Positions 16,354-32,206 are shown, numbered from the stretch's first letter. The stretch: 33,624 nucleotides of DNA from a virus (IMGVR_UViG_2531839474_000013:1-33624); one strand, 5' to 3'. Translations and numbers: made by a program. The notes: generated from the sequence alone by a model not told the origin.

Positions 16354-16381
16354 AAAAAAACCCGCAAAAAGCGGGCTCTTT
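16354..16381 (-). terminator. intrinsic terminator downstream of the Q-like gene (tR'-like position)
   Basis: Minus strand GCCCGCTTTTTGCGGGT followed by TTTTTTT, about 75 nt downstream of the Q-like stop. Confidence 0.6.
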
Positions 16382-16454
16382 CAAATGTCCATGTCTGCTA
16401 TTCGCCTCGCGGTACAGCTTTGCGAAGCGTACCGGAATTGAAGCAGTTTTTACG

Positions 16455-17383: not shown

Positions 17384-18439
17384 TCATGCTTTCCACTTCA
17401 GGACACCCGAATTTCTCGCGTGCATTAAAAAACGAATCAGCAACAACAGCTGGCTGCCGTGTTTTTCTTCAAAATCTTTTACCCCGGCGTGCAGTTCGTT
17501 ATGACATTTACGGCACAGCGGAATAACAAACAAATCATCAGCCTTTGTTCCCATCCCTCCCAGTCCATGACCAATGATGTGATGCGGATCATCTGCCTGA
17601 TTACCGCACGTCATGCATTTCTGCGTTTTTACCCAGCGCGTGTATACAGGCATCTCTTCCCGTTGTGGTTTCTGGCGCTGGAGATACTGAGCCGGTGACT
17701 CCGGATCAACGGCAATGCTGACCACCGTCTTTTCCTGTGGCGGGTTTTGCTGGTGGGCGTGAGGCAGCAGCGCAAGATTTTTTGTGCGCTGCTTCAGTAT
17801 GCTGGTGGCGGTCTGCTCTCCCGGTACGATGTCGCTTTCGCGGTACACCGAGCGGATTTTTTCCGCACGCAATCCCAGAGAACGACGTAATACTGCCTCC
17901 GGCAATACGTCCGCTACCTGATTGCAGACCGCCCACCAGGATAATTCAGCCAGCGATAACTCCCGCTCCTGTGTGCCATTCATTGCGTGACGGATGACGT
18001 CAATCATCCATGCTGCCAGGTTTTGTTGAGCCAGATGTTCCAGTGAGTCGGAGGTCTGGTCGCGCAGCTGGTTGTCGCAGTGCCAGCACAACACCATCGC
18101 GCCAGCACCGTAACGATGTATGACGGTTTCGCTGTGGTGATAGTCGCCATGAGGCCACTGGCAGGATTTGACATGACGCAACAGCCAGTCAGAAAGTGCA
18201 CCAGCGCCGCCAGCAGCACGAATCACCCGTTCGTTACTGAAAAACGGCAGCAATGTTTTGTCTTCCGCCAGCGGCTGGCGAATGGCAGGAACGACTCCGG
18301 ACGGCAGACCGCGCATGCTTTTCGGTTCCGGCTCCACCAGCACTCGAGGGTTATGAAATACCTGCATGGATTCACGACCAGGCTTAAGGACCACCAGCCC
18401 GAGTTCCGGTACCGGAACAGGTCGAAGTAATACCCGCAC
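17384..18439 (-). CDS. DUF968-family phage protein (YdfU-like) with C-terminal HNH-like Cys/His motif
   Basis: 351 aa; C-terminal CMTCGN...HHIIGHGLGG...CRKCHNELH; GTG start with GGAGGT upstream; nin-region position next to rusA. Confidence 0.7.
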   Translation of the reverse strand: MRVLLRPVPVPELGLVVLKPGRESMQVFHNPRVLVEPEPKSMRGLPSGVVPAIRQPLAEDKTLLPFFSNERVIRAAGGAGALSDWLLRHVKSCQWPHGDYHHSETVIHRYGAGAMVLCWHCDNQLRDQTSDSLEHLAQQNLAAWMIDVIRHAMNGTQERELSLAELSWWAVCNQVADVLPEAVLRRSLGLRAEKIRSVYRESDIVPGEQTATSILKQRTKNLALLPHAHQQNPPQEKTVVSIAVDPESPAQYLQRQKPQREEMPVYTRWVKTQKCMTCGNQADDPHHIIGHGLGGMGTKADDLFVIPLCRKCHNELHAGVKDFEEKHGSQLLLLIRFLMHARNSGVLKWKA

Positions 18440-18440
18440 G

Positions 18441-18740
18441 TTACCTCCAGATGCGTTGCTGGAATGTGCGGGACGGACGCGGCGGACGTTCGGAATAAGG
18501 GAGCCTGACGGAGATTATCCAGTGGCGACGGTCAAGGCTGAGGTCTTTCTCAAACTCATACCCACGTCTGCGGTAGTTCTGAATCAGCCATTCGGCCTGT
18601 TCTTCAGTGCAGGGGTCATGCTGGAACCAGTCATATTTGAATGTGTGAGAACGCCGCCCGTGCCTGCTGGCAAAGACGGCTGAATTATCAGAATTGTGTA
18701 ATTTGGTCTTGTGCGCCATCTGTTTTCTCTGCTGGCGCAT
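18441..18740 (-). CDS. hypothetical nin-region protein
   Basis: 99-aa basic protein; stop is 2 nt from the DUF968 start; start codon uncertain (ATG 18740 or 18719). Confidence 0.45.
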   Translation of the reverse strand: MRQQRKQMAHKTKLHNSDNSAVFASRHGRRSHTFKYDWFQHDPCTEEQAEWLIQNYRRRGYEFEKDLSLDRRHWIISVRLPYSERPPRPSRTFQQRIWR

Positions 18741-18804
18741 CTTTGTCAGGTAAAATGGTGTTCAGCCATTTTGGGTGGCATTATTGTTGATACATACAAC
18801 TTGT

Positions 18805-19017
18805 TCAAGTCCGCATAAACTGATACACGATCTCCCTGAGCACTGTTTTCGATACAATTCGCTCATCAGCCCGCAAAGCTCTTACCCTAAGCATGTTCCC
18901 TTTTCGATGCCATACAGCTCTGGCTCCATCCGGAAAACAATCCATTTCAGCTACAACCGACATATCGTCACAACGAATAACTGCGTACTTACAATTCGCG
19001 GCGATCAACTTCTGCAT
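18805..19017 (-). CDS. hypothetical small protein
   Basis: 70 aa; ATG with AGAGG 8-9 nt upstream. Confidence 0.4.
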   Translation of the reverse strand: MQKLIAANCKYAVIRCDDMSVVAEMDCFPDGARAVWHRKGNMLRVRALRADERIVSKTVLREIVYQFMRT

Positions 19018-19114
19018 TGTAAAACCTCTGGTATTGGATAAAACATGGCTGGAATATATCCACTACAAATAACGATTTCACTCCCAAAAAATGCGTATTT
19101 CATGAGAAAAAACA

Positions 19115-19156
19115 ATGACTTTTTCTTTCTGTCATTTGTATACTCTAAAAATAGAG
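19115..19156 (+). promoter_or_regulatory. candidate promoter and palindromic operator of the toxin-antitoxin operon
   Basis: -35-like ATGACT, 18-nt spacer, -10 TATACT (19139..19144), then the palindrome CTCTAAAAATAGAG (19143..19156). Confidence 0.3.
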
Positions 19157-19258
19157 TGTTTTTTGAGCCGCCATTCCTTAGCAAGTCCTCTGTATGGATA
19201 TTGCCTGCCCTATTTAATTGTGTCACACTATGTATTACACAACGGTATGGAACCAAAC

Positions 19259-19630
19259 ATGCGCATTTTCAAAAATGCCTGGTTTGAACGCTTCGCACGA
19301 AAAAATCGGATTTCCGATAAAGCTCTGCGAGAAGTCGTGGAACTAGCTGATAAGGGACTCATATCCGCAGATTTGGGTAGTGGTGTCATTAAGCAGCGAT
19401 TAGCCCGAAGAGGTGGCGGTAAATCAGGCGGTTATAGGACAATAATTTTTTACCGCGTCGCAGAAAAGGCTTTTTTCATCTATGCGTACGCAAAGAATGA
19501 GAGAGAAAATATTACAGCCATCGAGGAAAACGCATTTCGAAAAGCTGCGCATCACGTTCTCAATCTTACTGATGAACAACTGGCGCAATTGATCCTGCAA
19601 GGTCAGTTTACGGAGGTACCCAATGAGTAA
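19259..19630 (+). CDS. type II toxin, RelE/ParE superfamily (HigB-2-like)
   Basis: GSGVIKQRLARRGGGKSGGYRTIIFY...YAKNERENI resembles V. cholerae HigB-2. Start placed at ATG 19259; the track's ORF from 19115 has a long, implausible leader. Toxin gene precedes the antitoxin. Confidence 0.75.
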   Translation: MRIFKNAWFERFARKNRISDKALREVVELADKGLISADLGSGVIKQRLARRGGGKSGGYRTIIFYRVAEKAFFIYAYAKNERENITAIEENAFRKAAHHVLNLTDEQLAQLILQGQFTEVPNE

Positions 19631-19940
19631 AAATTACCGCAGTGATGCACTTGCATCCGTACATGAAATGATGGAGTCACTTCAGGATATTGGCGCAGTT
19701 ACAAAACAAACTATGAGAGAGTTTGATGAACTCTGTCTGCAACCAGCGCCAACAATGTCGCCAGAAAGAATCCGGGCACTTCGCGAGCGCGAGCATCTGT
19801 CTCAACCTGTTTTCGCCAGATATCTTAATGTCAGTAAAAACCTCATTTCAGACTGGGAAAGGGGAATAAAGCGCCCTGGTGGCCCTGCCCTTCGTTTGCT
19901 TTCTGTGGTTGAGAAAAACGGAATTCAGTCAATCTGTTAA
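19623..19940 (+). CDS. HTH-XRE antitoxin (HigA-2-like)
   Basis: 105 aa; C-terminal HTH SQPVFARYLNVSKNLISDWERGIKRP; overlaps the toxin stop by 8 nt. Confidence 0.75.
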   Translation: MSKNYRSDALASVHEMMESLQDIGAVTKQTMREFDELCLQPAPTMSPERIRALREREHLSQPVFARYLNVSKNLISDWERGIKRPGGPALRLLSVVEKNGIQSIC

Positions 19941-19961
19941 TAAAAATTCACCATGAATAGC

Positions 19962-19995
19962 AAAACCCCGGACCATCAATCCGGGGTTTTTGTTT
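19962..19995 (+). terminator. intrinsic terminator after the toxin-antitoxin operon
   Basis: CCCCGGACCATCAATCCGGGG followed by TTTTTGTTTG. Confidence 0.6.
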
Positions 19996-19996
19996 G

Positions 19997-20080
19997 TTAT
20001 CCCCAGCGGCAAATCGAATACACCACCAGCGCCACCGCCATCGCAATTCCTACCGTTGTGAATGCTTCAGGCCAGGTCAT
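19997..20080 (-). CDS. possible 27-aa hydrophobic peptide, translationally coupled to the upstream gene
   Basis: ATG overlaps the stop of the 131-aa gene (ATGA); AGGAGGTGA 5-7 nt upstream; product MTWPEAFTTVGIAMAVALVVYSICRWG, a single TM-like segment. Confidence 0.3.
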   Translation of the reverse strand: MTWPEAFTTVGIAMAVALVVYSICRWG

Positions 20081-20472
20081 CGATTCACCTCCTGCTCAAT
20101 ATTTTTAAGGTCATTTTCCGCATACAGTATTGCTGTCCTGGCTGCTCGTAACCGGGCTTTGGCATTTTTCTCTTCACGTTCAAGTTTTGCCACAGCTTCA
20201 CGAAGAGCATCCCGCTTTGCATAGAGTGATTTAATCTCAGACACTATGTTTTCACCGTTTCTCGCACGGTCGAGAACAAGTTCGAACGGATCTAAAGCCA
20301 ATCCACACCGTTTGCAGGTAATCGTACGATTCACTTCTGAAATTGTTGTACGGATATGCTGACAGCATTTTTGCTCGACACTTTTTTCGTCGGTTATCAC
20401 AACGTTGAGGAGTCCTTCCTCCTCTGATTTTGGCTGTACCAGAGTGATAACATTGTCGACTTCATTTTTCAT
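20077..20472 (-). CDS. hypothetical protein with CxxC...CxxC zinc-ribbon-like motif and coiled-coil C-terminus
   Basis: 131 aa; CCQH...CKRCG; AGGAGG 7 nt upstream; start overlaps the DUF551 stop (ATGA). Confidence 0.5.
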   Translation of the reverse strand: MKNEVDNVITLVQPKSEEEGLLNVVITDEKSVEQKCCQHIRTTISEVNRTITCKRCGLALDPFELVLDRARNGENIVSEIKSLYAKRDALREAVAKLEREEKNAKARLRAARTAILYAENDLKNIEQEVNR

Positions 20473-21401
20473 CCGTTCACCTCCTGCGGTGGTTCCGGTA
20501 GCGGCATCCAGTGAGTTGAGCTCTCTACTTCGACGCCGTCTTTGTCCACAAAAGCCATCTTATTCCCGCCACAAGTGGGGCAAAAAACCTTATCCCAAGA
20601 ACCGGGGAATACATTACCGAGATCATCGAGAAGAATCACATCGCAATATTCAGCAGGAACTGCATCACTACAGCTTATCCAGCCAGCCGGAGTTACCGGA
20701 GGGGTACCCGATAGCGCATTCTGCTCCAGTGATGCTTTTACAAACCACGCTGCCTGAACTATAACGCCATGAATCCAGCGCAAATCAGCATCGCGATCTT
20801 TCTTTTTCATCTTCTCGCCACTTAAAGCCTGGCTTATGTGGCTGCGTACCAAGTCTTCATGTAACGCCTTCGCATCCTCAATGGTGAAACCACCAGGCAG
20901 GCGAGTCGGGGTTACATGAGGGTTGCCTTCCCCCTGACTCTGAAGCATGGCGGCACTCCGCTCTATACCATCCAGCGCGATTCGCAGTGCCTGAATTGTG
21001 GTAGAGCTATCGTTTGGGGCTATTCCATATCGCTCGAATACAGCGATATGACCGCGCATAATCTCAGGCGTAAGCTCTTTGTAAGCATAAGCAAGAGACC
21101 CTGATACATTATCCGGCACAACCGGAACTGACGGCGCAGACAGTAAAGCCTTGGCCATACACATTGCTTCCAGTCCTGTAGCCTCAGCTATACCGTCACG
21201 AATAAGTTCAAGCCCCTCTTTTGTTAACAGTTTCATTCCTTTATACATGACGGGCACCAGCGGTTCAGCTACCAGCGATGCCAGTGCAATTTTGAATAAC
21301 TCGCCCTCTACCCGCGCCATCTCTGAATTGGGGTGGCATTTCGCAATCGCTATTTTTAATTTCGCTTCTTCGATTAATTGTTCTTTGGTTAATTCAGTCA
21401 T
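20469..21401 (-). CDS. DUF551-family phage protein
   Basis: C-terminus ...FCPTCGG...THWMPLPEPP is typical of DUF551. Start placed at ATG 21401 (AAGGAAA upstream), giving 310 aa; the track's longer ORF overlaps the upstream gene. Confidence 0.6.
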   Translation of the reverse strand: MTELTKEQLIEEAKLKIAIAKCHPNSEMARVEGELFKIALASLVAEPLVPVMYKGMKLLTKEGLELIRDGIAEATGLEAMCMAKALLSAPSVPVVPDNVSGSLAYAYKELTPEIMRGHIAVFERYGIAPNDSSTTIQALRIALDGIERSAAMLQSQGEGNPHVTPTRLPGGFTIEDAKALHEDLVRSHISQALSGEKMKKKDRDADLRWIHGVIVQAAWFVKASLEQNALSGTPPVTPAGWISCSDAVPAEYCDVILLDDLGNVFPGSWDKVFCPTCGGNKMAFVDKDGVEVESSTHWMPLPEPPQEVNG

Positions 21402-21402
21402 T

Positions 21403-21621
21403 TCAGTTTTCCTTATATGGATTAATTTTGTTGTGTAGCGCCCTGAATGGTTCCCATACCATATCGATATACAGTTCAACAATCGGCTCAAATATTTTTC
21501 CGATTATCCAAACCAGAAACAGCAGGTTTATCGGTATCATCAACACGATAAACAGAATGAGAAACAGAAATTCTGTTGTTCTACTCTTTCGCGGATATTC
21601 TTTTCTGAATAATGCAGTCAT
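21403..21621 (-). CDS. hypothetical small membrane protein
   Basis: 72 aa with a hydrophobic core FLFLILFIVLMIPINLLFLVWIIG; AT-rich; ends 2 nt before the DUF551 start. Confidence 0.4.
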   Translation of the reverse strand: MTALFRKEYPRKSRTTEFLFLILFIVLMIPINLLFLVWIIGKIFEPIVELYIDMVWEPFRALHNKINPYKEN

Positions 21622-21748
21622 TTATTACCGCCCTTTCGGGCGGCCTCCTGATGTTTTGAGGGTGCAGGAATCCCTCCGGTTAAGGATTTAATAAAAATCA
21701 CTTCTGATTTAAATTTTCAGTGTTTTGTTGCCAGGGGATTTATCGCCT

Positions 21749-22060
21749 TTACGCTTCAGCCTTATTTCGCAACCAGACACAAACCGGGCCATCTTCGGTG
21801 TCATGTATTGAACCAATAAACCATCCATCGCCCTCTGGTCGTTCCGGTTCCCAGGTGGAAATATCAGGACCATCTGCATCAAGATTAAAATCATCTTCAT
21901 CCATAGTTCTGATGGTCCATTGAAGATTATTTTCCTCCATCCATGCGTTAAACTCTTCCGTTGAAATATGTTCTCTACCATCACAGAATTTTTCATATTC
22001 AGGATGCGTCCAGCAGCCATATTCATCACGTACTACTGGTATTTCTTTAATTTCATTCAT
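21749..22060 (-). CDS. hypothetical acidic phage protein
   Basis: 103 aa; start overlaps the stop of the reconstructed IS-disrupted gene (ATGAATGA). Confidence 0.5.
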   Translation of the reverse strand: MNEIKEIPVVRDEYGCWTHPEYEKFCDGREHISTEEFNAWMEENNLQWTIRTMDEDDFNLDADGPDISTWEPERPEGDGWFIGSIHDTEDGPVCVWLRNKAEA

Positions 22061-22204
22061 TTCTGTTCTCCCACGTTTTCAGACTTTCACCACAGAACGG
22101 ACAAAATGAAACCCGCACTGGTGATTTAGAAAATTCACCGGAACGCAACATCACCAAATCAGGGCCGCGAGTTAAACTCTCATTCCAGATTTTGTATATC
22201 AGCA
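22053..22204 (-). pseudogene. C-terminal fragment of a zinc-ribbon gene split by the IS insertion
   Basis: Reads in frame with the fragment at 23515..23620 once the IS and one copy of the GCA duplication are removed; ends ...VRVSFCPFCGESLKTWENRNE*. Confidence 0.65.
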
Positions 22205-22243
22205 TGAACCGCCCCGGTTTTCCTGGAGAGTGTTTTATCTGTG
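22205..22243. repeat. terminal inverted repeat of the IS (orfB-distal end)
   Basis: TGAACCGCCCCGGTTTTCCTGGAGAGTG... is the reverse-complement match to the other end. Confidence 0.7.
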
Positions 22244-22246
22244 AAC

Positions 22247-23134
22247 TCAGGCTGCCAGATCATCGTTTCTGATGGAAGCATAATAAGCTTTTTCTGCTTC
22301 TGCCGGAGGGATATGACCCAGCCTTCCCAGCAATCGTCGATTGTTATACCAGTCCACCCACGTGAGTGTGGCCAGTTCCACTTCTGCACGGTTTTTCCAG
22401 CTCTTACGGTGTATTACCTCCGCTTTGTAAAGACCATTGATGCTCTCCGCCATCGCGTTGTCATACGAGTCACCTGTACTCCCTGTTGATGCCAGCAGTT
22501 TTGCTTCTTTTAGTCGCTCCGTATAGGCCAGTGATACATACTGAGAACCTTTATCACTGTGATGGACTGTGCCGGACGGCCGACGGGCCCACAACGCCTG
22601 CTCCAGTGCATCCAGCACGAATGTCGTTTCCATAGACGATGAGACTCGCCACCCCACGATACATCCGGCAAACACATCAATGATGAACGCCACATAGACG
22701 AAGCCCTGCCATGTGCTGACGTAAGTAAAATCAGCCACCCACAGCTGGTCAGGACGTTCTGCCACGAACTGACGGTTTACGCGGTCGCCTGCGGAAACGG
22801 CTTTCCGGCTGACGGTAGTACGGACCTTTTTACCCCGGAGAACACCGGCAAGTCCCATAACCGCCATGAGGCGCGCCACTGTACATCTGGCCACCCTGAT
22901 ACCTTCGCGTAACAACTGGCGCCAGACTTTACGCACACCGTACACCTGATGATTTTCATCGTATACGCGCTGTATCTCTCTCTTCAGCCAGTCATCGCGC
23001 TGAGCACGGGCACTGCGTTTATCAGGATGATGTCGCTGTTGCTGACAGTGGTAATACGTTGACGGGGCAATATGCAGTTCACTGCATACCGGTCCGACCC
23101 CGTACTGCTCACGCAGCTTATCCAGCAGCGGCAT
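22247..23134 (-). CDS. IS3-family transposase OrfB (DDE catalytic domain)
   Basis: 295 aa with integrase-core-like motifs (ADFTYV, HSDKGSQY, DNAMAES); in the -1 frame relative to orfA. Confidence 0.9.
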   Translation of the reverse strand: MPLLDKLREQYGVGPVCSELHIAPSTYYHCQQQRHHPDKRSARAQRDDWLKREIQRVYDENHQVYGVRKVWRQLLREGIRVARCTVARLMAVMGLAGVLRGKKVRTTVSRKAVSAGDRVNRQFVAERPDQLWVADFTYVSTWQGFVYVAFIIDVFAGCIVGWRVSSSMETTFVLDALEQALWARRPSGTVHHSDKGSQYVSLAYTERLKEAKLLASTGSTGDSYDNAMAESINGLYKAEVIHRKSWKNRAEVELATLTWVDWYNNRRLLGRLGHIPPAEAEKAYYASIRNDDLAA

Positions 23135-23460
23135 TATTTTTTCCAGAGGCGGTCGAACTCCGCCTTCGCAAAATAAGCGGAAGCCTGGCGAAGGATATCG
23201 TTACTGCGGCGCAGTTCACGATTTTCACGTTCCAGCTCTTTCAGACGCTGACGTTCAGCGGTGGTGAGTCCACCATCACCACTCCCGGTATCCCGCTCAT
23301 GCTGACGAACCCACACACGCAGAGTCTCTGGTGTACAGCCAATCTTTGGGGCAATGGAACAAATTGCCGCCCATTGTGAGTCATATTCGCCCTGACTTTC
23401 CAGAACCATACGAACTGCCCGTTGACGGACCTCGGGGGAAAAACGTGTATTTTTAGTCAT
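23134..23460 (-). CDS. IS3-family transposase OrfA (HTH domain)
   Basis: 108 aa with HTH and leucine-zipper-like C-terminus; ends TGG AAA AAA TAA, where orfB continues in the -1 frame. Confidence 0.9.
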
Positions 23461-23475
23461 CCTGTTTACCTCTTT

Positions 23476-23514
23476 CTCAGGGAGTTTAGTCTCCAGGATT
23501 CCCGGGGCGGTTCA
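23476..23514. repeat. terminal inverted repeat of the IS (orfA-proximal end)
   Basis: Minus strand TGAACCGCCCCGGGAATCCTGGAGACTAAACTCC..., 54 nt upstream of the orfA ATG. Confidence 0.7.
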
Positions 23515-23620
23515 GCAGACCTTTTCGCGTCGTGTATTCAGCATCATGCTCAAGGGATTTTGCCAGTGCTGCACATGGTTCTATCTTGTTGCCATTAATT
23601 TGGCATTTTGACTCACTCAC
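23515..23620 (-). pseudogene. N-terminal fragment of a zinc-ribbon gene split by the IS insertion
   Basis: GTG at 23620 with AAGGAGA 6-7 nt upstream; 35 codons (..SESKCQINGNKIEPCAALAKSLEHDAEYTTRKGL) then runs into the IS and stops after about 9 codons. Confidence 0.65.
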
Positions 23621-24297
23621 TGGTTGTCTCCTTTGCGAATCTGTTCCGCCCATTCTTCAAGGGATTTCTCCGCATATTCACCGGACAGACCATCAATCGG
23701 GTGCGGTTCATTAGCCAACTCTTCTTTCGCTGACAGAATCATGCGCGTAACGTCGAAAACTTCACGTAAAGACTTATTGATAAATCCGTGATTGAACGCA
23801 GCAGCAAGACGGCTGGCGGTATAGTTAATCCCCTCGTTGCGTGCTTCCGCACGTACATCAGCCAGGAAAGCATCTGTAGCCGGGGTTTGCGGCATCCTTC
23901 CGTCTATTGCACAGATATACGCATCAGATAGTTCATCCTGCTCGCCATCAAACACGTAGCAACTCTGTACGATAAATTTATTCAGCCCCGCATTCTCCGC
24001 CGCAAGCGCAGCAAGATTAGTCTCCAGCCCTGCAATGCGTTCCTCCAGTTCGTAGACTCTGCATTGCTCTTTATCATCAATCAGATATAACCCAAGACAT
24101 TCGCTTTCTACCCAACCGCCGAAATCATGATCGTAACGCTCACATGAAAACTCACCATCGCTGTCCCTTGTTGGAATGGTGTAACTGTCTAATGGGCCAC
24201 CGTACGTCGGTACATTTCCCAATTTCGGATGCTCAATCCACATGAAAAATGCACGTCCGGTTATAGGGCAAATATCTGGTCGCCATTGATTACTCAC
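23617..24297 (-). CDS. hypothetical phage early protein with coiled-coil segment
   Basis: Start placed at GTG 24297 (AGGAGG 6 nt upstream), overlapping the upstream stop; about 226 aa. Confidence 0.5.
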   Translation of the reverse strand: MSNQWRPDICPITGRAFFMWIEHPKLGNVPTYGGPLDSYTIPTRDSDGEFSCERYDHDFGGWVESECLGLYLIDDKEQCRVYELEERIAGLETNLAALAAENAGLNKFIVQSCYVFDGEQDELSDAYICAIDGRMPQTPATDAFLADVRAEARNEGINYTASRLAAAFNHGFINKSLREVFDVTRMILSAKEELANEPHPIDGLSGEYAEKSLEEWAEQIRKGDNQ

Positions 24298-24589
24298 TGT
24301 TTGCCTCCTGGAAAATAACTGCATGCCCCAGCTTCTCCGCCAGTGCCAGTTCTGCCTTAGCGCCTGTTGACCACTGCCAGCCTTTCAGCATGTAAATCGC
24401 ATCCACACAACGAATCATTGCCATGCAAATATCCATGTAGTGTGGCTGTGTCAGCCCGTCTGGAAGTACTGCCGGGTTTAAGACTGTATGCCCTTCCCGT
24501 TTCAGTTCCTCTTCCGCATTGTGGAACGCCTCACGGTTGAAATTTTTATACCCGGTCATCGGACCAGCGATATAAACCCTTACCCTCAC
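24290..24589 (-). CDS. DUF4406-family protein (nucleoside 2-deoxyribosyltransferase-like)
   Basis: 99 aa; N-terminal VRVYIAGPMTGY motif typical of this family. Confidence 0.65.
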   Translation of the reverse strand: MRVRVYIAGPMTGYKNFNREAFHNAEEELKREGHTVLNPAVLPDGLTQPHYMDICMAMIRCVDAIYMLKGWQWSTGAKAELALAEKLGHAVIFQEANSE

Positions 24590-24987
24590 ACCATCACCTC
24601 CTGAAAATCTCCCTGATAGAACGCCAGTACACGCTGCATAACCTCACTCTGACGGCACTCACGGCAAATTATGTTCTGGTGCCGGTCGTAGGGTTGTGCT
24701 CCGGCTTTACCCTGTTTTTGTGCTGGTTTGCGGATAACCCTTGCTTTTCTTGCCGAACTTGCCAGCCATTCACGGTAAACTCCCTCTGAAAGGAACACCC
24801 CTTTTCCGCTGACAACATACACTTCGCCCTGGCTCACCAGCATCTTCAGGTACCGGCGAATGGAATCATGTGAAGCATATGTTGTCGATGCCAGTTGTGG
24901 CATTGTCATACGCCCGTTTTTACGTACAAGGTCAACGATGTGACGCTGTAATCTTTCCCGCTGTTCTTCGGTATAAATAGCCCCCAT
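24586..24987 (-). CDS. hypothetical protein, possible winged-helix DNA-binding
   Basis: 133 aa; translationally coupled (ATGA overlap) to the DUF4406 gene. Confidence 0.5.
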   Translation of the reverse strand: MGAIYTEEQRERLQRHIVDLVRKNGRMTMPQLASTTYASHDSIRRYLKMLVSQGEVYVVSGKGVFLSEGVYREWLASSARKARVIRKPAQKQGKAGAQPYDRHQNIICRECRQSEVMQRVLAFYQGDFQEVMV

Positions 24988-25029
24988 AAACTCTCCTGAG
25001 AAAATAACTTCATAACCTCAAATCAACAC

Positions 25030-25995
25030 TTACCCCCTGAACCCCGGCGGAATTTCGGTGTCCGGTTCAGAAATGTGATTCACGCAACGCTGTACAGGCG
25101 AACGCCCCAGACGAATAACCAGCTCATCCCATTTTTCGCGAAGCTTTGACGGGCTCATGACGTTTTTTACCCAGAAGGGATCCCGCTGCACCCGACCAAA
25201 CATTTCGCAAATTTGTCTGTGAGTTCTGCCATCCAGCATCCGCATTGTGCGCACATCATTGGCCCATGCAGTCCAATTGGGTTCTTTCGGTCGCATGATT
25301 TCGCCATCATCGCTGGCAGCCTGCTCGTAAAGACTCACGATTCGTCCCCAGATCCACTGCGCACACGCTAAATCTTCCTGGCTGCCCCACTGGCGTTTTT
25401 TCGCACTGAACACAACCGCGTCAGGATGTCGGGTCAAAAAATCCTGTTCAGCCGTCTGCATGTCCGGTTGCAAAGCTTCCGGACGAGAAGTGTTTTTATT
25501 CTCTGTAGTAATCTCTGTTGTATTCTCTGTAAGATCATCAGGCCATTTTGACCCGATGACATTGTGTCGTTTTGAACCAATGGAGCGTGTCATTTTGGCC
25601 TCTTCCATCGTGTCATTTTGACCTGATGGAGCGGCGCATTTTGACCTGATGGATTCGCTCACTTTGCCACCATCTAAAAGCTCGCTCTCGTAATTAATCG
25701 TGTAAAAATTAGTCATGTCACGCTTTGATTTGTTGAGCTTTTCGCAACGCAAAAGCCCCAGCGCTTTCAGACTTGCAAATGCGCGTTTTAACGTTGACTC
25801 TGACCAGAACGGGAACTGTTCCAGCCATTGTTCTGTTGTGTTATAAATCCAGCGAACACCATCACATTCCATGCCGGAACCGGTATCTCTCAACCAGTAA
25901 TGCAGCTGCTGCAACACGATGGCTTCGTTCAGACCAATTTTCATCGCCAGCTGCGTGTTAATAACCAGTGGGCGTTCAGCAAAAAGAAGACTCAT
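25030..25995 (-). CDS. replication initiator (lambda O-like role) with iterons inside the gene
   Basis: Start placed at ATG 25995 (MSLLFAERPL..), about 321 aa; immediately downstream of the immunity region; the coding sequence contains the repeats listed at 25544..25680. Confidence 0.65.
   Translation of the reverse strand: MSLLFAERPLVINTQLAMKIGLNEAIVLQQLHYWLRDTGSGMECDGVRWIYNTTEQWLEQFPFWSESTLKRAFASLKALGLLRCEKLNKSKRDMTNFYTINYESELLDGGKVSESIRSKCAAPSGQNDTMEEAKMTRSIGSKRHNVIGSKWPDDLTENTTEITTENKNTSRPEALQPDMQTAEQDFLTRHPDAVVFSAKKRQWGSQEDLACAQWIWGRIVSLYEQAASDDGEIMRPKEPNWTAWANDVRTMRMLDGRTHRQICEMFGRVQRDPFWVKNVMSPSKLREKWDELVIRLGRSPVQRCVNHISEPDTEIPPGFRG
25544..25680. repeat. candidate replication origin: five to six iteron-like direct repeats
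   Basis: CATTTTGACC(C/T)GATGGA-like units at 23-24 bp spacing, followed by an AT-rich stretch at 25681..25720; they encode the repetitive peptide ..SIRSK..SIGSK..VIGSK... Confidence 0.6.
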
Positions 25996-26497
25996 AATTC
26001 CATCCGACTTTTTGTTGATATTGCTGACGATACGCACGCTTGAAAGCAATGGCTTTTTCTATAAGCTCGTCAGTCTCACGTTCCACAACAGCTGGATCCG
26101 CAAAAAGCAGCCCGGACTCCACCACATCGCCATATTCTTTGTTTAACCCGGCGATCATGTACGTAATGCTTTTTCCGTCAGTAATTTCACAATACAACCT
26201 GAAATCGCTGATCCGGATAGCCTCCATAATTGCCGGAATCAGCGCCGTGAATTTTTCACGCTTATCCCTGGTGTCGATAGCTTTCCAGCGTTCGAATATC
26301 TTCACCCTGTTAACGCCCAGCGCCCGTTGATCAACCGCGCCATCATCAAACGTGACGCGATGAACATCGATGTTCGGGCGTTCTTTCAGAGCCCAGAATG
26401 CTTCCGTGATTAATATCGTCGCCTGCTCCTGCGTCATTCCTGGTCGGCATACCCAGGCATCCAGAGCCTCGCGAGCCTGCTCAGGAGTGAATATCAT
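25976..26497 (-). CDS. YdaT-like protein (Rac prophage ydaT position)
   Basis: 173 aa; REKFTALIPAIMEAIRISDFRLYCEITD resembles my memory of E. coli YdaT; follows the YdaS-like gene. Confidence 0.5.
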   Translation of the reverse strand: MIFTPEQAREALDAWVCRPGMTQEQATILITEAFWALKERPNIDVHRVTFDDGAVDQRALGVNRVKIFERWKAIDTRDKREKFTALIPAIMEAIRISDFRLYCEITDGKSITYMIAGLNKEYGDVVESGLLFADPAVVERETDELIEKAIAFKRAYRQQYQQKVGWNYESSFC

Positions 26498-26756
26498 TGT
26501 TCACCGCCAGTGATTCATTCGACATACACTTATTTTCACAAGGTAGTCCATCTGTTGGGTTGGGATAAATGTCAGGGCGAAGTTCGTGGGGAGTAATTTC
26601 CCAATTCAGTAATGCACAGAGTGACGACACGCGTTCAGCAGGAACCTTGCCTTTAATGAACCACTTGCCTACGGCCTGGGAGCTAATGCCAAAGTGTTTG
26701 CCAATGTCAGTTTTCGACATTTTTTTAGAGATCTTATCGTGAATTTGATTACTCAT
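26481..26756 (-). CDS. Cro/YdaS-like HTH regulator
   Basis: HTH (IGKHFGISSQAVGKWFIKG); divergent from the repressor gene; start placed at ATG 26756 (GGTGGAAAG upstream). Confidence 0.65.
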   Translation of the reverse strand: MSNQIHDKISKKMSKTDIGKHFGISSQAVGKWFIKGKVPAERVSSLCALLNWEITPHELRPDIYPNPTDGLPCENKCMSNESLAVNNDIHS

Positions 26757-26796
26757 ACTTTCCACCAGTACTATTAATTTCACCTACGCTACCATC

Positions 26797-26832
26797 AAAA
26801 ACTATAAGTTTCAACACAAAACCTATAGTTTT
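26797..26832. promoter_or_regulatory. operator region with two related palindromic 15-mers between the divergent regulator genes
   Basis: AAAAACTATAAGTTT (26797..26811) and AAAACCTATAGTTTT (26818..26832). A -10-like TATACT at 26857..26862 sits 7 nt before the repressor ATG, suggesting a leaderless mRNA. Confidence 0.5.
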
Positions 26833-26868
26833 GCTGATTGGTGAAACCTTTGGTTGTATACTTAAAAA

Positions 26869-27279
26869 ATGAGTAAAATAAACCATCCAATATTTGCTGA
26901 GAGAGTTCGGCAAGCAATGAGCGAACATGGCTGGTCGTTAGCCGGTCTGGCTAAAAAGGTTATGCTGTCCCATACCGCTGTGCGTAAGTGGGCAACAGGA
27001 GAAACCATTGCCAGCGGAGAAAGATTAAAAAGACTTGCCGCGGTAACAGGAAAACCAGAACATTGGTTTTTTATGCCGCTAAATGAACATTCAAAGGAAG
27101 AAGATGCACCACCACTAATCCAGCTTGACGACAAAGAAAAGGCGCTATTGTCCCTTTTTAATCAGTTGCCAGAAACGGAAAAGCTGAGACTAATCATGCA
27201 CACAAAAAGCATTCTTCATGAAATGGATCTTCTAAAAAACGATGTATACGACATAATCAATGATATTCAAAAACAATAA
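26869..27279 (+). CDS. prophage repressor, HTH-XRE, RacR/DicA-like (no S24 peptidase domain)
   Basis: 136 aa; N-terminal HTH; C-terminal EKALLSLFNQLPETEK resembles DicA; divergent from the Cro-like gene. Confidence 0.8.
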   Translation: MSKINHPIFAERVRQAMSEHGWSLAGLAKKVMLSHTAVRKWATGETIASGERLKRLAAVTGKPEHWFFMPLNEHSKEEDAPPLIQLDDKEKALLSLFNQLPETEKLRLIMHTKSILHEMDLLKNDVYDIINDIQKQ

Positions 27280-27286
27280 GTTACAT

Positions 27287-27316
27287 GAAAAAAGCGCCTC
27301 CCTGGCGCTTTTTTTA
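27287..27316. terminator. bidirectional intrinsic terminator after the repressor gene
   Basis: AAAAAAGCGCCTCCCTGGCGCTTTTTTT. Confidence 0.65.
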
Positions 27317-27350
27317 TCCTCACAAATAAAACTTTATGTTCCATTGCCTA

Positions 27351-27379
27351 TTGACCAATAAAACCAATAGTTTTACCAT
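27351..27379 (+). promoter_or_regulatory. candidate repressor-controlled promoter with a third operator copy
   Basis: TTGACC, 17 nt, TACCAT; the spacer contains AAAACCAATAGTTTT (27360..27374), a 14/15 match to the operator at 26818..26832. Confidence 0.35.
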
Positions 27380-27596
27380 TCATTCCATCAACAACGAACC
27401 GCATCGTTGTCAGGCTAAAGTTCCGCTACCCCGGCGTTAAGGGGAAACAGAGGATTTCTCAGTGGGCGAAGTCAAACATCAGAATGGAAGGCATCAAGGG
27501 ATCAGCAAAGAAACAGCGATGGCGCTTTATATTGATATCAGCGCCATTGCCGGACAGGTAAGAGTTATCAGAGCGGTAACTAAGCGGTATGCGCCT

Positions 27597-27797
27597 TTAC
27601 TTCAGAAAGTCTCTGGTGAGTGCACCGAAGATATTGTCAACGATTTCGTCATCGAACTGCGAGGACTCATCTTCAGTTACAAGGTGACCACAATTTTTGC
27701 AGATGGTTCCCGCGAAACTGTCAGAGCCATGCGGTTTAAAGGATGTGTCAAAGACTTCGCCGCCACATTCTGGGCAAGAAAACTTGATTGTATTCAT
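27597..27797 (-). CDS. hypothetical zinc-ribbon protein (66 aa)
   Basis: CPECGG...CKNCG pair with acidic C-terminus; ATG 27797 with AGAGGAAA 7 nt upstream. A 118-aa plus-strand ORF overlaps it completely, so the assignment is uncertain. Confidence 0.45.
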   Translation of the reverse strand: MNTIKFSCPECGGEVFDTSFKPHGSDSFAGTICKNCGHLVTEDESSQFDDEIVDNIFGALTRDFLK

Positions 27798-27889
27798 AAC
27801 CAATTTCCTCTCGAGTAACAGATCCCTCAGAGGATACCACCTCGCCTGACGTGGTTAAAAGCAGGCAACGCTAACCACAAGGAGCCGAC

Positions 27890-28108
27890 ATGCAGAAACG
27901 AGAACCCGTCATCATCGCGCCAGACTATACCGATGATGAACTTTATGAGTGGATGCACCAGAAAATTAAGGCAGCGCAGGACCTGAAATGGGCCAATGAA
28001 GCCAGGGCTAAGCAGGCTGAAAATCTGTCCGCTCTGGAGCAGGATATCACCAGGCTGGAAAAAGCAGCGGCATTAAGCATTGCCAGAATGATTACATACC
28101 CGCGTTAA
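27890..28108 (+). CDS. hypothetical protein (72 aa)
   Basis: ATG with AAGGAG 6 nt upstream; helical, charged sequence. Confidence 0.5.
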   Translation: MQKREPVIIAPDYTDDELYEWMHQKIKAAQDLKWANEARAKQAENLSALEQDITRLEKAAALSIARMITYPR

Positions 28109-28130
28109 TAGCTAACCAACGAGGCTAATA

Positions 28131-28460
28131 ATGGAATTTAAAGATTTACCAATGCAATTCCAGGAAATGGCAGCGAATATAGTTCGTTCCCAACTGGCGA
28201 CTCTTGACCTGAGTACCGTAGAAAAAGAAACCATCGATACTATATCCGGTAACGTGCGTCGTGCCTTTATCGGTCTGTACGAAGAGAAGCAGCTCTCTGA
28301 TAACCAGGATTTACATGAAAAATACTTCCTGGATCTAATGGACATCATTAATAAGGGGTTTGGCTTGTTAATGGAAAAGAAAGGGATTCGGATAGAACCC
28401 CTTGAAAATTGCTTCGTAACAAGAAGCATCAATTCTTTTGATTCAAAACAAGAGAATTAA
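28131..28460 (+). CDS. hypothetical protein (109 aa)
   Basis: ATG with GAGG upstream; 3' end overlaps the convergent ORF by 32 nt. Confidence 0.45.
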   Translation: MEFKDLPMQFQEMAANIVRSQLATLDLSTVEKETIDTISGNVRRAFIGLYEEKQLSDNQDLHEKYFLDLMDIINKGFGLLMEKKGIRIEPLENCFVTRSINSFDSKQEN

Positions 28461-28704
28461 TTACAGATTTAACATGCTCTTTCTCATGATTGAAGCTCTC
28501 AGGGTTGAAAGTGCCCGGCTGAAGCGAGTCGATATAATCAACGAGATTCTTTCGTACCGTTTCATCTTTATTCATGGCAGATGCAAGGTATGAAATTGCT
28601 AACAATGTTATATCACTACGCGCCGCAGCATGCTGTAGTGTTTTATCAAAATCATTAATTTTCCGTATAAGAGAGTTAAGAGTTTCATTGACATCAAACC
28701 CCAT
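28429..28704 (-). CDS. hypothetical helical protein (91 aa)
   Basis: Start placed at ATG 28704 (AGGAGG 5-6 nt upstream). The track's 202-aa form starts at TTG and reads through the GC-rich structured region. Confidence 0.5.
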   Translation of the reverse strand: MGFDVNETLNSLIRKINDFDKTLQHAAARSDITLLAISYLASAMNKDETVRKNLVDYIDSLQPGTFNPESFNHEKEHVKSVINSLVLNQKN

Positions 28705-29265
28705 TTCATCCTCCTGAGGGTTAGTAATTAAGGAGTTCTCCACGGGTGAGGTGGAGTGCGTGCGCCGGACACGGGTGAGCATCCGGCACTGACAGTTTAC
28801 TGAAAGGATATCTCCCTGAAAAGTCAGGGCATAACGCGAAAGCGCACGGCGAAGTTGTTGGTTCATAGATAGCCTGTCGTTAAATTTTCGTCGACCGTGC
28901 GCTTCCGGTTGTGGCACTCCGCGAAATGGCGCGGCGGTAAGTATGGCGGGGTTATTCCTTCCCCGTTGAGGACACCGGGTTGTCAGGTTGACCATACGCT
29001 TAAGTGACAACCCCGCTGCAACGCCCTCTGTTATCAATTTTCTGGTGACGTTTGGCGGTATCAGTTTTACTCCGTGACTGCTCTGCCGCCCTTTTTAAAG
29101 TGAATTTTGTGATGCGGTGAATGCGGCTAAGCGCACGAGGAACAGTTAAAACCAAAAACAGTGTTATGGGTGGATTCTCTGTATCCGGCGTTAATTGTTA
29201 ACTGGTTAACGTCACCTGGAGGCACCAGGCACTGCATCACAAAATTCATTGTTGAGGACGCGATA

Positions 29266-29454
29266 ATGGAAACGTTATTACCAAACGTTAATACGTCTGA
29301 AGGTTGTTTTGAAATTGGTGTCACTATCAGTAACCTTGTATTTACTGAAGATGCCATTAACAAGAGAAAACACGAACGGGAGTTATTAAATAAAATATGC
29401 ATTCTTTCAATGCTGGCCCGTTTACGTCCGATACAAAAAGGATGCTGGCAATGA
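29266..29454 (+). CDS. hypothetical small protein (62 aa)
   Basis: ATG 29266 with GAGG upstream; stop overlaps the next start (ATGA). Confidence 0.4.
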   Translation: METLLPNVNTSEGCFEIGVTISNLVFTEDAINKRKHERELLNKICILSMLARLRPIQKGCWQ

Positions 29455-29642
29455 ATACAGCATTTGCACTTGTTCTGACATTTTTTCTTGTTTCCGAAGA
29501 GCCAGTTGATATTGCAGTCAGTGTTCACAGGACAATGCAGGAGTGTGTGACTGCAGCAACCGAACAGAAAATTCCCGGTAACTGTTACCCGGTCGATAAA
29601 GTTATTCACCAGGATAATAACGAAATCCCGGCAGGTCTTTAA
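29451..29642 (+). CDS. hypothetical small protein with N-terminal hydrophobic segment (63 aa)
   Basis: MNTAFALVLTFFLVSEEP...; AAGGA upstream; coupled to the preceding ORF. Confidence 0.4.
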   Translation: MNTAFALVLTFFLVSEEPVDIAVSVHRTMQECVTAATEQKIPGNCYPVDKVIHQDNNEIPAGL

Positions 29643-29734
29643 AACAGTTCCGTAATAAACATCCGATTTCATTCTTATATGCCAGAAATGGCAGGGATTT
29701 GTTCACCCTTAAATCTGTAATGAGGTAAAACAAA

Positions 29735-32206
29735 ATGAGTAAAGTCTTTATTTGCGCCGCCATTCCGGACGAACAGGCAATAAAGGAAGAAGGTGCAGTC
29801 GCTGTAGCCACTGCCATTGAAGCCGGTGATGAACGTCGCGCCCGCGCAAAATTTCACTGGCAATTCCTGGAACATTATCCGGCTGCTCAGGACTGCGCTT
29901 ATAAATTTATTATCTGCGAGGATAAACCTGGCATACCCCGCCCTGCCCTCGATTCATGGGATGCTGAATATATGCAGGAAAACCGCTGGGATGAGGATTC
30001 TGCTTCTTTTGTCCCGGTTGAGACTGAATCCGATCTGATGAACGTCACTTTTGACAAGCTGGCCCCTGAAGTACAGAACGCTGTCATGGTTAAGTTCGAC
30101 ACATGTGAAAACATCACCGTTGATATGGTGATTAGCGCGCAGGAATTGTTGCAGGAAGACATGGCAACATTCGACGGACATATCGTTGAAGCGTTGATGA
30201 AAATGCCAGAAGTTAACGCCATGTATCCGGAGCTTAAGCTGCATGCCATCGGGTGGGTTAAGCATAAATGTAAGCCTGGTGCCAAATGGCCCGAAATTCA
30301 GGCAGAGATGCGCATCTGGAAAAAACGTCGCGAAGGTGAACGCAAGGAAACCGGAAAATACACGTCTGTTGTTGATCTCGCCCGCGCCAGAGCCAATCAA
30401 CAGAACACTGAAAATTCAACAGGAAAAATCAGCCCGGTCATTGCTGCCACTCATCGCGAATACAAGCAGACATGGAAAACACTGGATGACGAACTGGCCT
30501 ACGCTCTCTGGCCTGGTGATGTGGATGCCGGAAACATTGACGGCAGCATCCATCGCTGGGCAAAAAATGAAGTTATCGACAACGACCGCGAAGACTGGAA
30601 GCGTATCTCGGCATCAATGCGCAAACAGCCTGATGCCCTTCGCTACGACCGCCAGACTATTTTTGGCCTTGTCCGTGAACGTCCGATCGACATTCACAAA
30701 GACCCCATAGCACTGAACAAATACATCACCGAATACCTGACGACAAAGGGCGTGTTTGAAAATGAAGAAACAAACCAGAGCACAACTGATACTCTCCAGT
30801 CACCAGAAACACAAACTGATGCAGTGGAAACGGAAATACCGGACAACCAAAAAAACGAAACCAAACCGGAAGCCGAACCATCTGTAGAGCGTGAAGGGCC
30901 GTTCTACTTCCTCTCCACAGACAAGGACAGAGAAAAATACGGTCGCGCAAACAAACTTTCTGGTCTGGATAAGGCACTGGCTGCAGGCGCCACTGAAATC
31001 ACAAAAGAAGAATATTTCGCCCGAAAAAACGGCACATACACAGGCTCACAACAAAATACAGATACAGCTGAAAAGACAGAACAACCAGAGCCGATAAAAG
31101 TTACCGCTGACGAAGTAAACAAAATTATGCAGGCAGCCAATATCAGCCAGCCTGACGCCGATAAGTTGCTTGCTGCATCACGTGGTGAATTTATTGAAGG
31201 GATTAGCGACCCGAATGATCCGAAATGGATTAAGGGGATCCAGACCCGCGATACTGTGAACCAGAACCAGCAAGAAACGGAACAGAACGACCAAAAAGCG
31301 GAACAAAACAGCCCAAATACGCAACAAAACGAGCCAGAAACGAAACAACCTGAACCAGTAGTGCAACAGGAACCGGAAAAAATCTGCACCGCCTGCGGTC
31401 AGACCGGCGGCGGCAACTGCCCTGATTGTGGCGCGGTGATGGGCGACGCAACATACCAGGAAACATTCGATGAAGAGAATCAGCCTGAAGTTCAGGAAAA
31501 TGATCCGGAGGAAATGGAAGGCACTGAACATCAACACAAGGAGAACACTGGCGGCAATCAGCATCACAATAGCGATAATGAAACTGGCGAGACGGCAGAT
31601 CACTCAATTAAGGCGAACGGTCATCAAAAAATCACATCCACCAGCAGAACGGGGAACCATCTAATGATCGACCTTGAAACCATGGGAAAAAATCCCGATG
31701 CCCCGATCATCTCAATAGGTGCAATATTTTTCGATCCGCAAACCGGAGATATGGGACCGGAATTTAGTAAGACTATCGATCTGGAAACTGCTGGCGGAGT
31801 CATTGATCGGGACACCATTAAATGGTGGCTTAAGCAATCACGCGAAGCGCAATCTGCCATTATGACCGATGAAATCCCGTTAGATGATGCACTGTTACAA
31901 TTGCGGGAATTTATCGACGAAAACTCCGGTGAATTTTTTGTTCAGGTCTGGGGAAATGGAGCCAACTTCGACAACACGATTTTGCGCCGTTCATACGAAC
32001 GGCAGGGGATCCCCTGCCCGTGGCGTTACTACAACGATCGCGATGTACGCACAATCGTTGAGCTGGGGAAAGCCATAGACTTCGATGCCAGAACGGCTAT
32101 TCCATTCGAAGGTGAGCGCCATAATGCACTTGATGACGCCCGTTACCAGGCAAAATACGTTTCAGTTATCTGGCAAAAACTGATCCCGAGTCAGGCTGAT
32201 TTTTAA
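29735..32206 (+). CDS. large phage exonuclease: N-terminal region of unknown function, low-complexity linker with C4 zinc ribbon, C-terminal DEDDh 3'-5' exonuclease domain
   Basis: 823 aa. C-terminal motifs IDLETMG (Exo I), [12 protein letters not shown] (Exo II), HNALDDARY (Exo III). Linker is Q/E/N/T-rich with [16 protein letters not shown]. Lies in the exo position upstream of xis and int. Confidence 0.8.

Follow-up and report, generated by a model that had tools for sequence, protein, structure and literature searches.

The region at positions 25030–27279 of the viral sequence IMGVR_UViG_2531839474_000013:1-33624 (33,624 nucleotides (nt), the whole stretch analysed and hereafter called the window) is very probably the lysis-lysogeny control and replication module of an Escherichia coli lambdoid prophage, which follows the logic of lambda cI-cro-cII-O/ori with other protein families. 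The module is a mosaic of a repressor and a Cro analogue of the Gifsy-2 type, a CII analogue of the YdaT type and an O-like initiator shared with known phages. These constituent modules have been described before, and in part characterised, in Gifsy-2, Qin, Rac and CP-933P; the region is therefore ordinary and does not represent a novel system of toxins or addiction. Gene content and order, family membership, the fold of the YdaT-type protein, the repeats, a terminator and the conserved position of an inverted repeat over the ydaT start codon were established directly, and experiments on homologues back the assigned functions (PMC8630535, PMC9986795, PMC11879457, PMC3121763, PMC10448788).

The window covers part of an E. 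coli lambdoid prophage, not the whole of it. Its minus strand carries the late, lysis, Q, nin-type and replication genes and its plus strand the leftward early operon and the integrase; the early, replication, Q, lysis, terminase, head and tail genes and the integrase appear complete. Some part of the 3.4-kb stretch around the module was matched in 3,962 of 5,426 complete E. coli genomes, and positions 24500–27447 are 100% identical in two chromosomes. The analysis places this common E. coli immunity type beside the antirepressor-controlled Gifsy-2 type. Its value is mainly one of annotation, in that it corrects the "toxin YdaT/YdaS" labels in RefSeq and Pfam.

Genes of the immunity module

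The module consists of the following open reading frames (lengths in amino acids, aa):

26869–27279, plus strand: prophage repressor (CI analogue), 136 aa, with HTH_3 at the N-terminus and a short helical part at the C-terminus
26481–26756, minus strand: Cro analogue (YdaS family), 91 aa; the reading frame is open to 26783
25976–26497, minus strand: YdaT-family regulator (CII functional analogue), 173 aa
25030–25995, minus strand: O-like replication initiator, 321 aa; the mechanically called reading frame extends to 26049

An earlier note, made from the sequence of the window, had described a Rac-like immunity module, and the repressor, the helix-turn-helix (HTH) protein, the 173-aa protein and the initiator are all present where it had placed them. 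On the minus strand, the cro-like and ydaT-like genes overlap by 17 nt and the ydaT-like and initiator genes by 20 nt, indicating that the three form a single operon. The same synteny is found in two 45%-identical relatives from other enterobacteria (L007 and L009), and isolated phages annotate the corresponding genes as cI, Cro, cII and O. The reading of the region as an immunity (lysis-lysogeny) module, which the note had put forward as one option, is borne out: the Cro analogue belongs to the YdaS family and the CII analogue to the YdaT family, the initiator gene contains iterons, and a loader gene is missing.

Gene order and logic are those of lambda cI-cro-cII-O. As in lambda, predicted tripartite operators lie at the rightward and maintenance promoters (PR and PRM) and a second operator set at the leftward promoter (PL), and a candidate CII-type site overlaps the start of the gene in the cII position. 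However, none of the four proteins was detectably homologous to its lambda counterpart in the searches run here; in addition, the repressor is devoid of the RecA-sensitive C-terminal domain and no P-type loader is present in the window.

By its sequence, the repressor is of the short Gifsy-2 GtgR type. It is 63% identical to GtgR over 136 aa (E=1e-58 in a direct comparison), and its best matches among phage genomes were Gifsy-2 and LT2 Gifsy-1 (63% over the full length, tblastn). Pfam matches were limited to HTH_3 (39.3 bits) and HTH_31, with no S24 peptidase (autocleavage) domain in the 136-aa protein. Full-length homology, small size and lack of an S24 domain together correspond to a non-cleavable repressor of the Gifsy type. 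The repressors of Gifsy-2, LT2 Gifsy-1 and the window are alike in being short, in having no cleavage domain and in their divergent layout, and in both Gifsy-2 and the window the repressor start codon apparently stands just after a -10 element. At 63% repressor identity the two would nonetheless probably be heteroimmune.

The note had described the repressor as similar to RacR and DicA. No similarity to Rac RacR was detected (BLASTP E=9.5 over 13 aligned residues), while the kinship with DicA, a related short repressor of Qin, was upheld (30% identity over 100 aa, E=2e-11). Membership of the DicA subfamily itself (NCBIfam NF007257) was considered and rejected, as the protein scored 47.6 bits against a cut-off of 101; it is related to DicA but is not DicA proper. 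The more distant relatives include the repressor of phage HannyBb and the PaaR2-like repressor of another E. coli prophage (L005; 28% identity, E=3e-19), which sits with a toxin-antitoxin pair of the ParE type. CP-933P has the same three-regulator architecture (PaaR2-YdaS-YdaT) as the window, but the window repressor is only 28% identical to the PaaR2-like repressor and is not followed by a paaA2-parE2 toxin-antitoxin pair.

The most likely start of the Cro analogue is the ATG at 26756: RefSeq uses this codon in a 100% identical genome, and the alignment with the Gifsy-2 Cro begins there as well. It scored 39.0 bits against Pfam YdaS_toxin (PF15943, cut-off 30) and matched phrog_35 (E=5.9e-22), the Cro structure 3bd1 of a Xylella prophage (E=4.9e-6) and, with 58% identity over 74 aa, the Gifsy-2 Cro analogue (E=5e-29). 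It thus combines a score above the family cut-off, similarity to known members of the YdaS/Cro family and a position divergent from the repressor. The YdaS-like label given in the note was correct, although the relationship to Rac YdaS of K-12 is distant (35% identity over 51 aa, E=7e-8). Qin DicC is unrelated to the window Cro analogue. The last 35 residues of the protein (26481–26590) are identical to those of its L005 counterpart (L005:2955-3060), whereas the HTH parts share about 40% and the whole proteins 62%. A similar ...NNENHS tail is present even in the unrelated DicC. The end of the cro gene is thus part of the module linked to ydaT, with a recombination joint inside cro.

The 173-aa protein is a true member of the YdaT family, as its sequence, profile, fold and conserved recognition-helix Arg-Trp pair all indicate. 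It scored 26.5 bits against Pfam YdaT_toxin (PF06254, cut-off 21) and matched phrog_163, annotated "CII-like", with E=4.3e-40. The note had likened it to Rac YdaT, rightly if distantly (45% identity over 29 aa, E=8e-7). CP-933P YdaT is 36% identical over 90 aa (residues 6–94, E=2e-7, BLASTP) and was aligned profile to profile with a probability of 97.3% (E=2.5e-11, hhalign). As the alignment to CP-933P YdaT starts at residue 6, the protein has no extra N-terminal domain. When the PDB was searched by phmmer with this protein as query, no match was obtained, and the link to the solved CP-933P YdaT structure 8bt1, whose sequence was rebuilt from the Rac YdaT search, was made only through BLASTP, hhalign and the fold search.

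AlphaFold2 gave an unusable model of the protein with an 11-sequence alignment (predicted local distance difference test score, pLDDT, of 51.7) and a model with a pLDDT of 88.2 with a 30-sequence alignment. Helices were predicted at residues 5–16, 23–35, 57–73, 77–97, 99–107, 111–130 and 135–164, the all-alpha arrangement of YdaT, in which a POU-like HTH domain precedes a long helix at the C-terminus. The top Foldseek match in the PDB was chain C of 8bt1 (probability 1.00, template modelling score of 0.65 normalised to the target, 138 columns), and it was the sole meaningful one, the next match having E=0.29 and a probability of 0.14. In the 30-sequence family alignment R70 is invariant and W71 nearly so, and the two residues align with the Arg-Trp pair of the Rac and CP-933P proteins. 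In Rac YdaT this pair (R57-W58, in the recognition helix) is needed for DNA binding and for the fold (PMC11879457).

The note had set the 173 aa of this protein against about 140 aa in Rac. The protein is indeed longer, but the length is no anomaly, since full-length members range from 143 to 173 aa and 173 aa is the standard length of the E. coli subfamily, with thousands of member sequences. The family as a whole is narrow (83 cluster representatives among 1.84 billion proteins). Compared with Rac YdaT, the added length resides in the alpha2-alpha3 loop and in one extra helix (111–130) before the long terminal helix; the window protein also differs from CP-933P YdaT by this longer loop and extra helix. 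The alpha2-alpha3 loop has already been described as variable (PMC9986795). YdfX of the K-12 prophage Qin (96 aa, L003:4347-4637) is 90% identical to residues 1–93 of the 173-aa protein and is therefore a truncated copy, the stump of a CII-type regulator. The immunity genes of the window are, unlike this remnant, all full length. Rac and the window have in common a YdaS-family Cro and a YdaT-family CII analogue, the Rac proteins being distant, whereas the CII analogue of Gifsy-2 is a P22 C1-type protein of 106 aa unrelated to the window protein.

The family assignments bear directly on whether the YdaS-like protein, the YdaT-like protein or both are dedicated toxins held in check by the repressor, so that the region would make loss of the prophage or of the repressor lethal. 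The Pfam families are named YdaS_toxin and YdaT_toxin, and in Rac, cells do not survive the silencing of racR, and YdaS or YdaT expressed ectopically is toxic (PMC5700373, PMC5700377, PMC11879457). By sequence and fold, however, both window proteins are DNA-binding regulators and stand exactly at the cro and cII positions. In CP-933P, YdaS and YdaT regulate promoters and do not form a toxin-antitoxin pair, and YdaT is not toxic (PMC8630535); the critique of Jobling in 2018 made the same argument from genetic context (PMC5917428). L005 does have a real addiction cassette, a ParE-type pair after its repressor, whereas in the window a terminator follows directly at that place. PADLOC returned generic HTH matches only. 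We therefore regard dedicated toxins as highly unlikely. The type II toxin-antitoxin or addiction module was likewise rejected as a candidate, its would-be toxins being HTH regulators and no pair being present after the repressor. The framing of the note, in which toxic YdaS and YdaT make the region an addiction switch, goes back to the old toxin label and was not sustained, as the homologues act as analogues of Cro and CII. Experiments in Rac and CP-933P have identified YdaS and YdaT as transcription regulators equivalent to these two proteins (PMC5917428, PMC8630535, PMC9986795, PMC11879457), and in CP-933P the CI, Cro and CII roles and the bistability of the switch were shown experimentally (PMC8630535).

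Predicted operators and promoters and the candidate YdaT box

Control elements were found in and around the 112 bp (base pairs) that separate the divergent repressor and cro genes, over the ydaT start and downstream of the repressor:

26798–26857, no strand: right operator region, three 15-bp near-palindromes related to AAAACCTATAGTTTT, with predicted binding
26798–26812, 26818–26832 and 26843–26857 (weakest), no strand: the sites of the right operator (OR)
26857–26862, plus strand: TATACT, a candidate -10 element for the maintenance promoter that ends 6 nt upstream of the repressor ATG, from the sequence and a hexamer scan
26770–26814, minus strand: candidate PR analogue, overlapped by the first operator
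26487–26504, minus strand: candidate YdaT box GTGAAC-AATGAT-ATTCAC, with the ydaT start codon in the 6-nt spacer; a presumed binding site
27285–27317, plus strand: intrinsic terminator, a 14-bp stem between an A-tract and a T-tract, directly after the repressor gene
27351–27379 (region 27328–27379), plus strand: promoter analogous to PL and dicBp, TTGACC-17-TACCAT
27360–27374 (in the PL spacer) and 27328–27342 (weak), no strand: sites of the left operator (OL)

Operator-like sequences with at most 3 mismatches were found 8 times in the window, against 0.78 expected; when 4 mismatches were allowed, 9 of the 22 matches in the whole window fell inside the two control regions (170 bp). Related operator sites or half-sites occupy the corresponding positions in Gifsy-2, which also has a similar PL region. 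The terminator folds with -19 kcal/mol (z=-6.5), and none of 200 shuffled sequences folded equally well. A consensus promoter scan had reported PL as the sole promoter and no terminator; the terminator was then confirmed by folding. In the hexamer scan PR, PRM and the reverse promoter came out as weak candidates only. The PR hexamers could be TTGATG-17-AATAGT (hexamer scan) or TTGAAA-17-TAGCGT (read by eye); neither is strong, and the assignment of the hexamers is uncertain. A Shine-Dalgarno sequence was not seen ahead of the repressor ATG, which, with TATACT only 6 nt upstream, suggests a leaderless mRNA. By analogy with lambda cI and PaaR2 (PMC8630535), the repressor message is probably leaderless.

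The -35 element and the transcribed leader of PL align with Qin dicBp, while the operators differ. The leader (27386–27450, with GTTCCGCTACCCCGGCGTTAAGGGGAAA and an upstream dyad ACAACGA/TCGTTGT) is kept in Qin dicBp, for which the dicA-ydfA spacer of L003 was compared, and partly in Gifsy-2 (L013:4030-4100). It slightly resembles a boxA/boxB nut site; no N-like gene was identified. A search for a conserved RNA structure in the leader supported just a 4-bp hairpin across the three sequences, which is not convincing.

The candidate box is similar in layout to the one known from Rac. There, YdaT footprints ATGATT-CATGAA-AATCAA, with the ydaT start in the spacer as in the window, and stimulates a reverse promoter towards racR (DNase footprinting, PMC11879457). 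In 10 of 10 loci examined, the Rac box included, the pattern xTGAxx-N6-xxTCAx stands at an offset of -7 relative to the A of the start codon, and positions 2–4 of its spacer are the ATG. Qin, HannyBb, PhiR42_1 and PPompW have the variant TTGAAC-AATGAA-AATCAC, and the two 45%-identical enterobacterial relatives have GTGAAC-AATGAT-GATCAG and CTGAAC-AATGCT-GATCAG, the sequence upstream of the box being unrelated in each. The ydaT-like gene of the window thus has the position typical of the YdaT family, after the gene in the cro position and before the replication genes, with a 6-N6-6 repeat over its start. The published Rac/CP-933P box TTGATT-N6-AATCAA was looked for at the cro/ydaT junction of the window and is not there: the half-sites are TTGATT/AATCAA in CP-933P and GTGAAC/ATTCAC in the window. 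Evidence for binding of a box by a YdaT tetramer and for activation of the reverse promoter comes from the CP-933P and Rac proteins only (PMC9986795, PMC8630535, PMC11879457). Judged by its sequence and location, the box is a well-placed candidate, not a demonstrated site, and would represent a specificity variant for the YdaT family.

In phages PhiR42_1, HannyBb and mEp460_ev081 the ydaT-like gene and the O-like initiator share about 90% DNA identity with the window, but these phages carry immunity genes of the DicA/DicC type where the window carries the Gifsy-2-type pair; in PhiR42_1 the genes are annotated as cI, Cro, cII and O. A recombination joint between the immunity types is located at about 26508, just upstream of the ydaT start. 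Since this joint lies just upstream of the box, the box travels with ydaT.

An exact 12-nt inverted repeat, CAATGATATTCA, is present at 26488–26499, at the ydaT start, and at 27258–27269, at the end of the repressor coding sequence; the two copies are 758 bp apart, and about 0.08 such 12-nt pairs would be expected in the 1.6-kb region (an estimate). The copy at the repressor 3' end was considered as a second box and rejected, as it contains the right half-site only and the left one is absent. Looping by a YdaT tetramer between the two CAATGATATTCA copies is one idea of what the pair may do.

By analogy with the studied homologues, we infer the binding events and promoter activities of the switch, as well as its induction route and the recruitment of a helicase by the initiator, in the following way. 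In a lysogen, the short repressor would occupy the 15-bp operators at OR and OL and keep both early operons off, the rightward one (the cro-like, ydaT-like, O-like and DUF977 genes and onward) as well as the leftward one (the ydfC-like gene, dicF, dicB, the DUF1482 gene and the exonuclease gene), while sustaining its own synthesis from a probably leaderless transcript. After infection or derepression, the Cro analogue would compete for the same operators. The YdaT-family protein, with its predicted POU-like HTH domain and long C-terminal helix, would bind the inverted repeat over its own start codon and would be expected to activate from there an establishment-type reverse promoter towards the repressor gene. 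The O-like initiator would bind the iterons within its own gene and fire the origin there. RecA cleavage would play no part in induction, which would depend on an antirepressor or a spontaneous flip.

Initiator, origin and the DnaT-like tail

The initiator has no Pfam family match but matches phrog_391, "replication initiation O-like", with E=6.8e-96. The following elements lie in or directly next to its gene:

25429–25651, no strand: putative origin of replication, inside the initiator gene
25429–25446: inverted copy of the iteron
25497–25532: three tandem 12-mers
24586–24987, minus strand: DUF977 winged-helix gene (Pfam DUF977, E=2.6e-25), right after the initiator, in the position of the loader in relatives

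The iterons reported in the note were confirmed as five direct copies with a period of 23–24 bp and the core CATTTTGACC at 25536–25651. Iterons and 12-mers are located in the part of the gene that codes for the inter-domain linker, and with at least four iterons the arrangement corresponds to an origin of the lambda type. The lambda origin lies within gene O, and in that gene, too, iterons adjoin a short run of tandem repeats in the segment that encodes the linker.

The note had seen no DnaC-like loader gene, and we also found no DnaC-, P- or DnaB-like gene between the initiator gene and the Q antiterminator gene. The reading frames examined at 16033–24987 matched DUF977, DUF4406, an IS3 transposase, DUF551, DUF968/HNH, RusA, Q or nothing; a two-gene replication module is thus not present there. 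In PhiR42_1 and HannyBb, the same initiator is directly followed by the DUF977 gene, again with no loader. Because the loader-less layout exists in isolated phages, the one-gene form appears sufficient and the missing loader is not a defect. A DnaC-like gene is carried by L005, L007, L009 and Gifsy-2, in the first three at the position of the DUF977 gene, and in the E. coli relative L005 it follows an initiator of the window type. The replication genes of Gifsy-2 differ from those of the window in including a DnaC-like loader; in Rac, the initiator YdaU is a DUF1376 protein followed by the DnaC-like YdaV, and Qin has lost its replication genes. In related phages the DUF977 gene has been labelled "Ren-like exclusion protein", "LygF" or "phage replication protein".

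The last 20 residues of the initiator (25030–25092) are identical at 14 of 20 positions (70%) to residues 160–179 of E. coli DnaT (E=7e-8). The protein ends in SEPDTEIPPGFRG (the last ~12 residues), copying the C-terminal tail of host DnaT. A DnaT-like tail also ends the initiators of Rac (YdaU, L002:4120-4977), L007 (4528–5361) and L009 (4940–5884), a feature that Rac and the window share, so that it is found on at least four otherwise different phage initiators, that of the window included. The Rac YdaU, L007 and L009 initiator genes and host dnaT each lie directly upstream of a dnaC-type gene. An O-like protein with a C-terminal DnaT motif has been described before in a domesticated form (PMC5509034). 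The literature examined contained no statement of what the extreme C-terminal tail of DnaT binds, and the literature searched contained no text with the motif strings PPGFRG or PPGFKG. As a tentative proposal, possible rather than probable, the tail could recruit DnaC-DnaB or PriA, by which loader-less phages (the window, HannyBb, PhiR42_1) would capture the host loader. If this were true, phage initiators would point to the still unknown handover from DnaT to DnaB/DnaC (PMC13377028). The DnaT-like tail on a loader-less initiator is the only lead of wider reach in this analysis.

Induction, integrity of the prophage and left operon

In a repressor that has no autocleavage domain, induction is expected to occur via an antirepressor or a spontaneous repressor/Cro flip. 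Gifsy repressors are not cleaved on induction but are inactivated by an antirepressor (Lemire et al., PMC3121763), and DicA and Rem follow the same antirepressor logic, DicA-DicC being a bistable switch (Ragunathan and Vanderpool, PMC10448788). Antirepressors can also act in trans from other prophages (PMC3121763). Gifsy-2 has a LexA-controlled dinI-gftA antirepressor unit (PMC3121763) and Qin has the antirepressor Rem; no counterpart of either was found in the window. The antirepressor gene may lie outside the window or in another prophage. The prediction is that the prophage would not be directly RecA-responsive and that other prophages may induce it in trans.

The possibility that the prophage is a domesticated or cryptic one has to be considered together with the insertion sequence (IS) and the left operon, whose elements are the following:

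~22190–23514: IS3-family element of about 1.3 kb, orfA at 23134–23460 and orfB at 22247–23134, between the replication/nin genes and Q
29040–29091, plus strand: DicF small RNA (Rfam, 76.7 bits against a gathering score of 48)
29266–29454, plus strand: DicB, 87% identical to Qin DicB (Pfam DicB, E=1e-36)
29397–29642, plus strand: DUF1482 gene, overlapping the end of dicB in another frame
29735–32206, plus strand: 823-aa "exonuclease", in which Pfam detects a single domain, a DEDD 3'-5' exonuclease of the Rv2179c-like type at the C-terminus

After PL, the left operon thus comprises a ydfC-like gene, dicF, dicB, the DUF1482 gene and the gene of the 823-aa exonuclease, and it is homologous to that of Qin (PL leader, ydfC-like gene, DicF, DicB). 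DicF was the sole match in an Rfam scan of 24000–30000. In such a domesticated prophage there would be no lytic growth, and the module would now be mainly a bistable host-level controller of the cell-division genes dicF and dicB, like DicA-DicC in Qin. The IS3-family element interrupts the rightward operon upstream of Q, DicF and DicB are placed under a PL-like promoter whose leader is homologous to Qin dicBp, no antirepressor was found in the window, and the example of Qin shows that a cryptic element can retain a switch of this kind (PMC10448788). On the other hand, the early, replication, Q, lysis, terminase, head and tail genes and the integrase look complete, the immunity genes are full length where ydfX of Qin is truncated, modules nearly identical to this one are present in isolated phages, and the IS insertion need not be polar. 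We judge domestication unlikely and retain the reading of the region as a lysis-lysogeny control and replication module.

Several observations nevertheless speak against this reading or parts of it. The IS3-family element, found at a median of 4 places per E. coli genome, may be polar on the late genes, and the prophage may therefore be unable to complete a lytic cycle. Homologues of GftA, DinI and Rem gave nothing better than E=0.16 (tblastn, in the window only; the gene after dinI in Gifsy-2 served as the gftA query and was named from its position), and the only perfect LexA-type box of the window, at 9565, is in the late genes, at chance level, with none near the module. PR and the reverse promoter are poor matches to the sigma-70 consensus. 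The candidate YdaT box overlaps the C-terminus of Cro and codons 1–4 of YdaT, so that its conservation could partly reflect protein constraint; its dyad symmetry is weaker in the Qin/HannyBb variant; and its core TGAA-N8-TTCA occurs once in the window, about as expected by chance, so that the case for the box is one of positional conservation, not of counts.

Loss of the repressor would probably harm the cell for the usual prophage reasons, since derepression of both early operons would set free dicF, dicB and the DUF1482 gene along with the replication genes. Apart from the immunity module, the plus strand carries at 19115–19940, opposite the surrounding nin-region genes, a RelE-like gene (Pfam PF06296, E=1.3e-46) that overlaps with a gene of the HTH_3 type; this pair is probably a toxin-antitoxin moron unrelated to the module. 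At the position of the 823-aa exonuclease, L007 and L009 have equally long proteins that carry a RecE-type Exonuc_VIII domain.

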